This document shows positions 16,061 through 59,112 of a stretch of DNA of 64,000 nt, piece after piece. A program made the translations under genes and the position numbers. Source of the stretch: Eledone cirrhosa (lineage: Eukaryota). The stretch covers positions 46,748,001 to 46,812,000 of the forward strand of contig OZ024748.1 in the NCBI GenBank assembly GCA_964016885.1. Reading direction: 5' to 3'. The notes under the pieces were generated by a model that was not told the DNA's origin, did not search any database, and saw nothing but the letters and a program-made list of their open reading frames with translations. Each line of letters starts with the position of its first letter. Position 1 is the stretch's first letter.

Positions 16061-16234
16061 AATATGGTTTTATAAATATATTTTCTATTTATTAATATAT
16101 TGTGTATTTACTCCACTAACCTATTGAGTGCTTTATATCAGTTATAAAAAGTTTAAGCTTGTTGAATCCCAACAAATTAAATATAACCTCTGCATATATA
16201 TGCAACGTTTTTTTAAATATACACTTCTGCGTTC

Positions 16235-16310
16235 ACAGATTGACTTTGTTAGTTTCAGAGGATCTCGTTAAAGGTGAAAGCAGCGATCCTTTGCGTAAAC
16301 GTTAATCCGT
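16235..16310 (+). ncRNA. HHR-like motif of the CAGAAGA-core family (diverged copy)
   Basis: acagattgactttgttagttt-CAGAGGA-tctcgttaaaggt-GAAA-gca...tgc; homologous to 53063-53137. Confidence 0.55.
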
Positions 16311-16519
16311 TATTTTAATAAATATATATATATAATCACCATTCTTTCTGTTTCTGCCTCTCTTTGTATCTCCGTCTGTCCGTCTGTCACTGTATCCCTG
16401 TTTCTGTTTATACATCCACGCTTCCTCCCATCTCCTCACTGTATCTCTCTCATGGTCGGTAAACCGCAAATAAAACATTTGCTTAAACCAAACAACAGAT
16501 AAATGTATTTCTTTCATAG

Positions 16520-17560
16520 ATATATATATATATATATATATATAAATATATATATACATATATATATACATATATATATATATACATATATATATATACA
16601 TATATATACATATATACATATATATATACATATATATACATATATAAATACATATATATATACATATATACATATATAAATACATATATATACATATATA
16701 TATATATATATATATATATATATATATAAATACATATATATATACATATATATATAAATACATATATATATACATATATATATACATATATATATACATA
16801 TATACATATATAAATACATATATATATACATATATATATATATATATAAATACATATATATATACATATATACATATATATATATATAAATACATATATA
16901 TATACATATATACACATATATATATAAATACATATATATATATATACATATATACATATACAAATATATATATAAATACATATATATATATACATATATA
17001 CATATATATATAAATACATATACATATACATATATACATATACATATATATACATATATATATATACATATACATATATACATATATATATATATACATA
17101 TACATATATATATATATACATATACATATACATATATATATATACATATACATATACATATATACATGTATATATACATGTATATATACATATATACATA
17201 TATATATACATATATATATACATATATATACATATATATATATATTTATATACATATATATATATATATATATATACATATATATATACACATATATACA
17301 CACATATATATACATATATATATACATATATATATATATATAAATATATATATATATATATATATATATACACACATATATATATATACATATATATATA
17401 TATATATACATATATATATATATATATACATATATATATATATATATATATACACACATATATATATATACATATATATATATATATATACATATATATA
17501 TATATATATATATATATATATATATATATATATATATATATATATATATATATATATATA
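16520..17560. repeat. Compound (TA)n/(TACA)n microsatellite
   Basis: Direct reading. Confidence 0.97.
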
Positions 17561-19226
17561 TGTGTGTGTGTGTGTGTGTGTGTGTCTAATGTTACCATGT
17601 TGTGTTTTGTTTGGTTGTGGTTGTTTTTTTTGTGTGTGTGTGTTTATTTTTATTGTCGTTATTGCCATCATTTCGGATGTCGTTCTTATTTATAAATCAT
17701 TATAACAACTACTATTGTTAAAACACAGAATACCAATAACTCTACTACTACTATTAATGATAGCAATATTATTAATAATATTAATAATAATAACAATAAT
17801 AATAATAGTAATAATAATATTGAAATTAATAACAATAATAATGATAGTAAAATGATAGTAATAATAAAAATAACAATGATTATTATTATTTTGTTATCAA
17901 TATTACTAATGTTGTTATTATTATTTTCTTATCGTTTGATATATACTTGGTGTACTTTTTCTAGTTTCTGTTTGATTTGATTTTATTCGTTTCTATCAAG
18001 ATTTATTATGTTTGCTAGTGTCTCTATTTTTTTTTGTCTCTAAAAAAACGAGCTTTGTCAATATACAAAAATGTTATTAGTATAATAGTGCATTATCAAT
18101 ACGAATGAGCATTATCAGTATCAATTATTTTTACTGTTTCAAGAAAGGAAGAAAGTCAGTACAGTACCCATGACAAGTTACAACGCCTTACATGGTTGGT
18201 AGGAAGTAGTTACCATCCATATGCAAACCTGAAATGAATGCTTGTATAAGAGAGTACTCCACTAAATGAGGCTAAGGTCCAGATGATGCGGTGTTAAACT
18301 AGACGACCTATTATGTCAAACAGCTAAAAACTCAGTAACTTAAAGAGTCGACACAAAGTACCCAAAATTTCTCATATGATGTTCTAACTATCCCCACCAA
18401 TCTTCAGCTCTGGCTGGTACTATATTTTATAGAGACTGAAGAGATCGATGACAAAACTGGATTTCAGTGATATTTGAACACACAATACAGAGAAACGGAA
18501 TAAGTAATGCAAAAGTTCCTGTCTAAATTTCTTACAATTTGCCCAATACAACGCCCTACAAGGGTACATTATTCTTTTGACACCGGGTGCATGGAAGGTA
18601 AAATGTGACCTCTGAATTATTTGAATATACCACACAATGAACCGAAATAAATAATAATGAATAATGCAAAAACATCTCCTCTGATATTCTTACAATTTAC
18701 ATAATACATCACCCTAAATGAGTACTTTATTATATCAAGCTCGAGAGGATGAAAATCAAAATTGATCGTGGTGAGATTGCATCTGAGAGATCCATGATAT
18801 AGCACAGGCCATTTAATCCAACGATCTAATGAATATGCCAAAAATCTGTGAATATTTCCATCAGTTTGAAATAGGTGACTCACCTATCTCTCTATACTCC
18901 TTCATTACCACAACGAAACCAACATATCCGCTTCATTCGTCTGGCGTTCGAGCAAACGTGGGTCTTCTCTCTTGACATGTTTGTACGAGTGGCACGATTT
19001 TAGCCGTCAATTACCTACTAATCACACCCTATCATAAAATACAAAGAATATGCACATTGTACAATATATAAACATAAGTTGCAGTTTCCACCAAAGAATA
19101 TATCCTCAAGATATCTTTGAACCCAGAGGAATAATTGTAAAACAAAGGGACACAATTTTGAGAGGAATCGAAACCGGAGCCATGAAGTTCAGAAGTAAAC
19201 TTTAAAACTACAGACTCATGTCATAA

Positions 19227-19405
19227 TAATTGATTCTACGTTGGGCACAAGGCCAGCAATTAACCAGTGCATTACTGGTACTTTATTTTGTCGACCTCGT
19301 AAGGATGAAAGGCAAAGTCAACCTCGGCGGGATTTGAACTCAGATCGTAAAGGGACGTAACTATGCTGGAAAGCATGGCGTACGACCCTCTACCGATTCT
19401 GCCAA
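19227..19405 (-). mobile_element. tRNA-derived SINE
   Basis: Minus strand has A-box-like tggcagaatcggtag, B-box gagttcaaatccc and core gcctttcatcc...ggtcga..aaataaagtaccag; close copies at 33650-33830 and 35234-35423. Confidence 0.85.
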
Positions 19406-55482: not shown

Positions 55483-55754
55483 AACTACCCCTCCTGTCTA
55501 CTGAGATTACTGATGTTAAATTCTTATAGAATTCTAGTAAATAATCAGGAACTGATTATACAGAGCGATTGTTGGTCAGGCAGAAATTAAAAATTAGAAG
55601 TGGAGCTCTGAAATAGCAATATATATATGGATGTATATATAATGTATTTTGCAATACACTTTATGCTTAATTAAAAGCATTTTGAAGACCGTATGCTATT
55701 GTTTTAGAGTAGTGACAAATTCACTTAATTTAATCTCAGCAAACAGGGGAGATA

Positions 55755-55799
55755 AGCCGACAAGGCCTTGTTTCGCTTTTGTTGAAGCTTATCAAGGCT
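55755..55799 (-). ncRNA. Type I HHR, U3-A8 core
   Basis: agcc-TTGATAA-gctt caacaa aagc-GAA-acaaggccttgt-C-ggct; 12-nt palindromic stem III, GUC site. Confidence 0.82.
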
Positions 55800-58700
55800 A
55801 ACTACCCCGCCTGTCTACTGAGATTACTGATGTTATATTCTTATAGAATTCTAGTAAATAATCAGGAACTGATTATACAGAGCGATTGTTGGTCAGGCAG
55901 AAATTAAAAATTAGAAGTGGAGCTCTGAAATAGCAATATATATATGGATGTATATATAATATATTTTGCAATACACTTTATGCTTAATTAAAAGCATATA
56001 TATATATATATATATACAAATATATACATATATATATACATATATACAAATATATACATATATATATACATATATATATACATACATATATATATACATA
56101 TATATATACATATATATATACATATATATATATACATATATATATACATATATATATATATACATATATATATACATATATATATATACATATATATATA
56201 CATATATATATATACATATATATTTACATATATATATATACATATTTATTTATATATATACATACATATATATTTATATATATACATATATATTTATATA
56301 TATACATATATATTTATATATATACATATATATTTATATATATACATATATATATATATATATACAAATATATACATATATATATATATATATATATATA
56401 CATATATGTATATACATATATATACATATATGTATATACATATATATATATATATATACATATATATATACATATATATATACATATATATATACATATA
56501 TATATATACATATATATATACATATATATATACATATACATATATATATACATATATATATATACATATATATATACATATATATATATATATATATATA
56601 CATTTATATATACATATATATATACATTTATATATACATATACATATATACATTTATATATATATACATATACATATATACATTTATATATATACATATA
56701 CATATATATTTATATATACATATACATATATATATATATATATATATTATATACATATATATATATGTGCTATATATATATATATATATATATATATATA
56801 TACAGACACACACACACACACACACACACACACACACACACACACACACACACACACACACACACACACACACACACACACACACACACGCATATCTATA
56901 ATACACGTTACGAAAAATGTTCCAATATGATATAGATGCAGATGTTTAAATTATGTATGAATAAGTGATCGATAGATGTAGGTGGTTTGACCAACACTAA
57001 GAGATCGTTTGCGATAAAGAAATAAAAAATAAAAACCAAGCACACACATACACTAAATCAGAAAATAAAAGCGATTTATTGACAAATTGAACGAGCGGAA
57101 ACTGATATATGAAATCTCTTTCGCACAGCTGTCACAACAACACCGCAAAACACTTTTCATTCCAAAGTCTAATAAACTAGACGCCATTTTGACCAAATCT
57201 TAAAATAGCAATAGGAACGGGCGATATCCCTTATCTACGTGTATATATATGCATATATACATATATATATGCATACAGTATATATACATATATACTGTAT
57301 ATACTATATATTACATGTATATATACATATATATATGCATACAGACATATATATATGTATCTGTGTGTGTGTGTATATGTATGTAATAATATATATAATA
57401 TGCATATATATATATATATATATATATATATATATATATGCATATATATATATATATATATACATATATATATATATATATATATATGCATATATATATA
57501 TATATATGCATATATATATATATATATATATGCATATATATATATATATATATATATATATATATATATATATATATATATATATGCATATATATATATA
57601 TATGTCTGTATGCATATATATATGTATATATACATGTAAACACACACACACACTATTTATATATATATACATACACACACAGATATATATATATATATAT
57701 ATGTCTGTATGCATATATATGCACATATATACGTATATATACATGTACATACACACACTTCTATATATATATATATATATATATATATATATATATATAT
57801 ATATATATATATATATATATATAGAGAGAGAGAGAGAGAGAGAGAGAGAGAGAAAGAAAGAGAGAGAGGGCGAGACTATGTTTTAAATCATACATCTACA
57901 TATATACACACTAAAACTATATATATACATATATATATGTGTGCGTATGTGTACGTATCATTTTATACATATATGTAAACATATATATGTATATACACAT
58001 ATACACACACGCATAAAACTCATGAGGTACGTTTTCATTTCCCTAATCAAGTTCGAAGCCTATATTGAAATAACCAATCATTTTTTTTTCTGCTCTCATT
58101 GCTTAGAATCTGCAATCTTGTAACATCTTTAATGGGATTCTAGGAGAGATTATTCCATTGGCTGTCACAGAATTATCATAGACAACATGGCAAATACAGC
58201 TTATTTCGAAGACAATATTTTTATTTCTATTTTACGTTTGCACATAAAAATTATTAAAATCTCTCTATTGTCCTAAGTTAACAATTTTCCTCTTTATCAC
58301 GCACGCTTTCCTGCAAATACACACACGTATGCATGCATAGAAGCGCATGCACACACACATTGACTGATATATGCATACAAACATTTACAAGGCAATATAT
58401 GTATGCCTGCAAATAATCTATATATCGTGTATACATGGATAGGTATACACAGTATGTGTATATCTATCTATTTATATATATATATATATGTGTGTGCGTG
58501 TATATATATATATATATATATATATATATATATATATATATATGTGTGTGTGTGTGTATATATATATATATATATATATATATATGTGTGTGTGCGTGTA
58601 TATATATATATATATATATATATATATATATATATGTGTGTGCGTGTATATATATATATATATATATATATATATATATATATATATATATATATATATA

Positions 58701-58954
58701 TATTATAGATGAATTGGCATTTGTTGAAATGTATCGGTGCTGTTATGCTTCACATCTCGTTGAGTTCAAATCCTGTCAAATCCAATTCAGATTTATTCTA
58801 TTCACACCGATTAATAAAGTACAAGTCTAGCACTCGTGTTGGTTTATCGTCTTTCTTTCTGTCTCCGAAAGAATCCGACTGTGATCCCACTTGATGGGTA
58901 ATGGGCTTCCTGTGGTTCAAAATGGCACTCCAAGTGAGTGGGTGTGGTCAACGA

Positions 58955-59112
58955 TCAGAAGATCCCCTTAAGGGTGAAAGCAACGATTCTTTGCTTAAAC
59001 TTTAATCTGTTATTTTAATAAATATTCGCTCTACAGTTCTTATATATTTGATATATATTTATCCTTATAGAGCCCTCGTTGGATTTTAGTCTTCTAATTT
59101 ATTATTATTACT
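58955..59112 (+). mobile_element. CAGAAGA-family copy, 5'-truncated at the HHR core and ending in TA
   Basis: tcagaagatccccttaagggtgaaagcaacgattctttgcttaaactttaatctgtt...; matches 33921-34075. Confidence 0.85.

Follow-up and report, generated by a model that had tools for sequence, protein, structure and literature searches.

A 64,000-nucleotide (nt) stretch of the Eledone cirrhosa genome (GenBank assembly GCA_964016885.1, contig OZ024748.1, positions 46,748,001 to 46,812,000, forward strand; hereafter the window) holds eight copies or pieces of a repeat that is predicted to fold as a type I hammerhead ribozyme, with the core CAGAAGA and hence an adenine at position 4 (U4A). U4 is nearly invariant in hammerheads. 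Here we report that A4 is fixed throughout the genome in this repeat, which we assign to a Penelope-like retrotransposon of the Hydra clade, and that the hammerhead fold was kept under selection after U4A had become fixed. The sequence evidence suggests, with a probability of about 0.5, that the A4 hammerhead is a slow, possibly protein-assisted self-cutter and not a dead ribozyme. The family thus presents a natural experiment: its founder had a change at a base that textbooks treat as essential, and still the family has at least 19,000 core-bearing copies in which the other core bases are guarded.

Position 4 across the genome and the hammerhead fold

To survey position 4, an exact 31-letter pattern in which this position was varied was run over the 3.0-Gb genome together with reversed controls. 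The pattern matched 19,124 times, with A at position 4 in 18,926 matches (99.0%) and C, G or T in 198 (39 G, 37 T and 24 C among the 100 of these listed). The reversed patterns gave 0 matches genome-wide, so the repeat is not a product of chance. The genome-wide consensus is therefore A4, not CUGAAGA, and because nearly all copies have it, A4 must already have been present in the amplifying master, as a sequence-only reading of the window had proposed. The same is seen for older masters: the old subfamilies, which differ in the sequence of loop II (5 or 6 nt long) and in the loop of stem III and read A or U at position 7 (N7), have A4 in 372 copies versus non-A in 44 (29 T, 10 G and 5 C). Copies with U4 occur with every loop type, and most of them are fold-back junctions, as were 13 of the 18 old-subfamily U4 copies read. 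When the seven core letters were left free, 212 matches were obtained, with A4 in 92 of the 100 listed, and A4 occurs in 30 of the 32 old copies and in 67 of the 68 young copies that were chosen independently of the core. An ancestral CUGA subfamily was sought and was not found among the old-subfamily and core-free searches.

Old copies diverge from their own majority by about 10-14% and young copies by 4-6%. Young copies share 95-97% identity over the open reading frame (ORF). What remains of the ORF in old copies matches the young one at only 72-76%, arguing that the evolutionary span is not short. All 26 published Hydra rows (PMC8557442) have U at position 4, as does a second Hydra family present in this genome, a sister with about 36% protein identity, which shows CUGAAGA in the same layout with an unlike stem I (CCGAG/CUCGG); we therefore infer that U4 is the ancestral state. 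A4 appears to have arisen once from U4, in the founder. Its origin may lie in an inversion of the near-palindrome TTC-W-GAA, where fold-backs swap A and U.

The layout of the fold is that of a type I hammerhead: stem I consists of AGUUU/AAACU followed by a bulge and a nine-pair extension, and stem II begins with U-U and continues with CCC/GGG (coordinates in Table 1). Across 14 copies, 95% of the cells are paired, and the majority base in both old and young copies fits C3, G5, A6, G8, A9, G12, A13, A14, A15.1-U16.1 and H17; the base by which the repeat departs from a type I hammerhead is U4 of the uridine turn. Shuffle z-scores for the folds of the copies lay between -0.5 and -1.5 and were not significant, and an Rfam search of the repeat with E up to 10 returned 4 matches, none of them a hammerhead, a weak test in that the canonical CUGA hammerheads of the window scored 17.5-18.6 bits, far below gathering; Rfam matches on the whole window were dominated by microsatellites among the 150 of 482 listed. 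Support for the fold comes from the invariance of core and stems while the loops change, and from the sister family, in which other stem sequences take up the same layout; it is only against this family, at about 36% protein identity, that stem I is wholly replaced.

To assess constraint, the variability of alignment columns was compared across seven subfamily majorities. None of the 12 core columns and none of the 17 columns of distal stem I varies, and the proximal stems vary in 1 of 25 (a change in the length of a T-run), while variation affects 11 of the 22 columns of the loops and N7 and 41 of the 131 flank columns (34 of 81 in the 5' flank). The differences are significant between core and loops (p = 0.003) and between core plus proximal stems and flanks (p = 0.0002). 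Of 32 old copies, 18 have A and 11 have U at N7, the sole core position that is free to change, loop II has been altered in both length and sequence several times, and U17 is never G in the subfamilies and copies compared. Because the core and stem columns stayed fixed while loops, N7 and flanks varied, the hammerhead fold was kept under selection after the fixation of U4A.

Parent element and RNA template

The repeat, for which the sequence-only reading gave no parent element, is identified by its features as the terminal repeat of a Hydra-clade Penelope-like element, and the eight copies in the window as 3' ends of that element. The parent was found through pairs of matches about 3.3 kb apart, and near-full copies lie elsewhere in the genome, for example at locus L061, where hammerhead, tail, ATG, long frame, a 3' untranslated region (UTR) of about 1 kb, hammerhead and (TA)n follow one another. 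The unit at L061 is 3,259 nt long, its ATG lies 157 nt after the predicted cut, and its frame is interrupted by a stop near the end; no unbroken full-length ORF was found among the matches listed for 20 long loci. A single ORF encodes reverse transcriptase and endonuclease, with the motifs RWR, DKT, YRDD, CNCRNRADC (CxCX5C linker), CDLC (CxxC) and CKH (CxH), no CCHH, and a GIY-YIG-like motif (IVY..YIG) at the C terminus. The reverse transcriptase motifs were matched by eye to the published Hydra alignment (PMC8557442), and the clade was assigned from these and the other motifs; Pfam and PDB searches with the ORF gave no significant match.

The ends of copies lie either 24-29 nt or about 115 nt past the predicted cut. 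Among 166 distinct ends, 61 carry the tail, 93 have (AT)n directly after the short end, and 12 are of other kinds. In line with the Hydra clade, the element shows a tandem pseudo-long terminal repeat (pseudo-LTR), inverted truncated arms, a one-sided tail and (TA)n targets. Inspection of L061 by eye revealed neither an opposite-strand hammerhead nor a second CUGANGA block. A motif GCTC-N2-3-CGGTT...GAGC stands a few bases beyond both copy-end sites, outside the hammerhead (L061:1499-1545 and 1586-1601; window 33991-34037); as folds, these motifs are not significant against shuffles (z of -0.65 and -0.02). Apparent junction hot spots at the core were dropped, since the loci had been chosen by patterns that start there.

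The closest known system is the Hydra clade of C-terminal endonuclease-positive (EN+) Penelope-like elements (Craig et al. 2021, PMC8557442), for example Hydra-1_Obim, from which the present family is distinct in both protein and hammerhead. Common to the clade and to this element, as far as the clade is described there, are RW(R/K), DKT, CxCX5C, CxxC, CxH and (TA)n targets, and also the pseudo-LTR with a type I hammerhead, the inverted 5'-truncated arms and the one-sided tail. Among the published Hydra rows, U-U at the base of stem II (14 of 26) and U17 (10 of 26) are ordinary features. In contrast, G15.2-C16.2 (the CUU site) replaces the C15.2-G16.2 of all 26 rows, stem III, with five pairs, is longer than in most rows and non-palindromic, the unit has 3,259 nt with a 750-nt intron where Hydra-clade units are generally below 3 kb, and the tail is about 85 nt long instead of 30-40 (PMC8557442).

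The intron lies in the 3' UTR of the element, is spliceosomal and has two alternative donors (L061:3834-4584 and 3867-4584). Its GT..AG joints were seen in sequence contigs of unrecorded type, which cannot show RNA ends. Runs from two further organisms gave 1 and 3 contigs at low depth and were left out as evidence on other species. The genome contains 368 copies in which one of the two main donors is joined to an acceptor that precedes the core by about 100 nt, and all ten spliced copies read continue through the hammerhead past the cut site. Since these spliced retrocopies run through the predicted site, the RNA that was copied was uncut, or re-joined, at the hammerhead.

Possible function of the A4 ribozyme

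As a slow self-cutter, the A4 hammerhead would reconcile a guarded core with an uncut template. U4 contacts the phosphate after A6 (PMC3088659), and A4 would weaken the uridine turn. In the young subfamilies A4 may further promote an off-fold, a helix between UUUCA and UGAAA with a predicted probability of 0.39 in the young form versus 0.0 in a natural U4 copy. Most RNA would then stay uncut at the 3' hammerhead, as reverse transcription requires given that copies end beyond the cut. A cut made now and then at CUU would still shorten the message at its 5' end or liberate RNA of unit length from tandem transcripts. Such residual use of cutting would keep the catalytic bases under selection. There are precedents for both parts of this reading. 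A viroid U4C variant (Ambros and Flores 1998, cited in PMC3088659), a natural change at position 4, is weakly active in vitro, yet sufficient and tolerated in vivo; however, it has C, in a rare variant of one replicon, whereas A is fixed here in tens of thousands of copies belonging to several subfamilies. A stem II starting with U10.1-U11.1 also appears in PMC3088659. Moreover, for one Penelope hammerhead, cutting took place only when the protein of the element was present (PMC11167929).

A second family of this genome has a fixed U4C, reading CCGAAGA or CCGAUGA in all 8 copies listed (Table 1 and loci L130, L156, L159, L181, L183, L200 and L350), with a palindromic stem III and a long stem II that varies between copies with its pairs kept. 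In 654 kb (the window and arbitrarily placed stretches), a descriptor that allowed any base at position 4 gave 70 matches, of which 64 have U, 4 have A (all in the U4A family) and 2 have C. A wider survey of 1.73 Mb, a sample enriched for the U4A family, allowed one change at any core position and yielded 16 clusters of at least 2 members: 11 canonical, 1 tied, 2 with a U3-A8 swap, 1 U4A and 1 U4C (3 members). Uncompensated family-level core changes among the 16 clusters occur only at position 4, although two such events are few. We tentatively propose, at somewhat below even odds, that the A4 hammerhead, probably with help from the element's own protein, cuts fast enough to be of use, and that position 4 is a tuning site, changed by Penelope-like elements at least twice here (U4A and U4C), at which the ribozyme is slowed so that the template survives copying.

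Several points weigh against a hammerhead that still cuts. The bases that catalyse cleavage are also structural and hold the hammerhead fold, and core conservation therefore cannot separate cutting from binding. The column comparison used majorities set by hand, treated columns as independent and collapsed the 6-nt loops by profile, and the 3' flank is itself rather conserved, with 7 of 50 columns variable. Most old copies were fetched by patterns that fix part of the core, the core-independent set of 32 old and 68 young copies serving as the check. In energy, the hammerhead fold (-13.1 kcal/mol) stands 2.1 above the predicted minimum (-15.2 kcal/mol), and proximal stem I has a probability of only 0.05-0.08, yet this value is likewise low (0.12) in the natural U4 copy. 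The off-helix reaches only 0.01 in two old copies and so belongs to the young form only. Covariation of the stems, whose absence the sequence-only reading had named as a refuting observation, is nearly lacking within the family, with two-sided change in 0 of 23 pairs among 14 hand-picked copies, not above shuffles; at the outer end of stem I, a single pair does change in a compensatory way among the old subfamilies, some of which have C-G and others U-A, and the young have lost it. Finally, slowing is not obligatory for a long stem III, as other families with a longer, non-palindromic stem III retain CUGA.

Two published results count in the same direction and bring up the main rival account, in which the ribozyme no longer cuts, its fold being kept for protein binding, assembly of an RNA-protein particle or protection of RNA ends. 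In deep mutagenesis of one hammerhead construct, all single changes in the CUGA turn were of low activity (PMC9901934), and in the one Penelope system tested, insertion in vitro proceeded without cutting, with uncut RNA as the main template (PMC11167929). The spliced, hence RNA-derived, copies described above, which cross the site uncut, would fit this account, and so would the great success of the family with A4 and the structural share of the core bases. However, the changes are just those of a hammerhead that works, with only N7 and the loops moving and U17 never becoming G, and a dead core would be expected to gain further changes over a span long enough to alter half of the loop and N7 columns. 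A non-cutting fold is possible, though we lean against it. Between the two choices left by the sequence-only reading, a functional core variant and dispensable cleavage, the evidence leans towards the first, as a slow ribozyme that was kept.

That the ribozyme died at U4A and was merely carried along, the unchanged core being a matter of luck over a short path, is improbable. Few masters in one lineage, the lack of covariation within the family and the near-identity of the young ORFs would suit such passive carriage, but 1 of 54 core and stem columns varies against the 41 of 131 in the flanks and 11 of 22 in loops and N7, and loop II changed repeatedly over the same path. Hardly credible is the idea that A4 was kept as a 3' splice site (pyrimidine tract and TTTCAG) within the core, by which splicing would excise or restore the ribozyme: the core does look like a good acceptor, the element has a genuine intron and an intron of Drosophila virilis Penelope ends at helix I (PMC4209133), but a donor pattern joined to core or stem I gave 6 matches, none preceded by the element's exon, against the 368 copies at the real acceptor upstream, which largely refutes a splice acceptor within the core; no donor-to-core joint occurs among the 15 of 38 joints listed, and since each of the two real donors ends in AG, A4 would be left in any case.

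The proposed slow cutting by the A4 hammerhead also has parallels in other Penelope systems, namely the minimal hammerheads with a U3-A8 core (Cervera and de la Pena 2014, PMC4209133) and the hammerhead of Anolis Poseidon (Frangieh et al. 2024, PMC11167929). From what these papers describe, the location in a pseudo-LTR, low activity (predicted here), an uncut RNA template and two copying starts that make the tail are shared. However, U3-A8 is a compensated swap (PMC4209133), whereas U4A has no visible partner change, and those Penelope hammerheads have a short palindromic stem III and act as dimers (PMC4209133, PMC11167929), whereas the U4A hammerhead could fold its stem III as a monomer. The element type and its hammerhead are already known; what appears to be new is the fixed and conserved U4A, though an earlier report of it is possible. 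No natural U4A hammerhead was found in the literature searched, which did not effectively cover the alignments of PMC3088659 and one file of PMC4209133: the string 'U4A' is absent from the main text of PMC3088659, and no such case was found in the accessible parts of PMC6765202, PMC3376415, PMC10085705, PMC11014351, PMC7229834 and bioRxiv 10.64898/2026.07.22.740005. The role of the hammerhead in Penelope-like elements is itself an open question (PMC8557442, PMC11167929). If A4 makes a workable core, the hammerhead consensus and the search patterns derived from it would widen; if the fold is kept without cutting, it would be direct evidence of a non-catalytic role; and if position 4 does serve for tuning, searches that fix the core (CUGANGA) would miss such families entirely.

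Copies in the window and neighbouring repeats

All eight pieces reported by the sequence-only reading are present (Table 1), and its view of the repeat as the most abundant local family agrees with 8 matches against at most 4 for any other of the nine repeat queries tried, a set smaller than a full repeat census. Its description of the core is likewise borne out: the five pieces with a native core all read CAGA(A/G)GA (C3 at 16256+, 33921-, 34193-, 53083+ and 58956+), and CTGAAGA at 33919 is the product of a fold-back junction. The two pieces in which the core is missing (34269+ and 52574-) both end before it. Three details had to be amended. The copy placed at about 53010 exists, but it extends back to about 52601 and contains part of the 3' UTR intron, the acceptor and the hammerhead. 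The CUU site, ascribed to every copy with a native core, occurs in 6 of 8 pieces and is CGU at 16296 and CUG at 34299. The bulged, extended stem I has its 5' arm in three pieces (16201+, 34193- and 53083+) and lacks it in the other five.

Table 1. Hammerhead elements, U4A copies and the U4C copy in the window (window positions; identities as given for each copy)
Feature	Position	Strand	Remarks	Identity
Type I hammerhead fold	53063..53137	+	read from sequence; cleavage predicted	
Distal stem I	53063-53071 with 53129-53137	+		
Proximal stem I	53078-53082 with 53124-53128	+		
Core CAGAAGA	53083-53089	+	A4 = 53084	
Stem II	53090-53102	+	followed by GAAA 53103-53106, then stem III up to 53122	
Predicted cut	after U17 = 53123	+	CUU site	
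3' splice acceptor AG	52980..52981	+	end of intron in 3' UTR of the element; core about 100 nt downstream; matches L061:4584	
U4A copy, diverged	16201..16325	+	core CAGAGGA; U16.1 changed to G	90.4% over 125 nt
U4A copy, left arm of first fold-back pair	33852..33923	-	core CAGAAGA; short end	
U4A copy, right arm of first fold-back pair	33917..34073	+	CTGAAGA from junction; one-sided tail of about 85 nt	
U4A copy, left arm of second fold-back pair	34125..34273	-	complete hammerhead, CAGAAGA; short end	96.0% over 149 nt
U4A copy, right arm of second fold-back pair	34269..34413	+	ends before core; with tail	
U4A copy, short inverted arm	52517..52574	-	terminal piece without core, on 5' side of long copy	100% over 58 nt
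U4A copy, longest	52601..53152	+	5'-truncated element 3' end; ends in (TA)n	93.7% over 553 nt versus L061
U4A copy, truncated at core	58955..59110	+	CAGAAGA; with tail	
U4C copy	27955-28012	-	inverted partial partner at 28645-28743	

Several other hammerhead families lie in the same window. A canonical CUGAUGA family with a palindromic TATATA stem III is found at 15722-15841 (-), 15991-16180 (+) and 32790-32888 (+), and one of its copies stops shortly before the U4A copy at 16201. An inverted pair at 63022-63330 belongs to another canonical family; its fold-back centre forms a perfect hairpin (63126-63225), for which the Rfam score of MIR529 is below threshold. Three identical canonical hammerheads with a CTAG stem III occupy 12958-13057 (-), 13341-13440 (+) and 13513-13612 (+), two of them 172 nt apart, and a separate hammerhead with a long stem III and a GUC site lies at 12326-12397 (+). 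An identical repeat present at 51450-51539 (-), 51970-52059 (-) and 52331-52420 (+) has CTGATGA followed directly by CGAAA and misfits the type I descriptor. Elsewhere in the genome, decayed ORFs of several other Hydra-like families, with 34-48% protein identity, were observed at loci L073, L111, L127, L128, L130, L183, L392 and L398.

Two further features of the window stand apart from the hammerheads. One repeat occurs in four copies (19225-19405, 33650-33830, 35231-35413 and 38879-38925), which we take to be like short interspersed elements (SINE-like). At 40000-40250, a peptide-like open sequence with a guanine-plus-cytosine content of 46% resembles part of an element of the long interspersed element (LINE) type and is a candidate for such a remnant.

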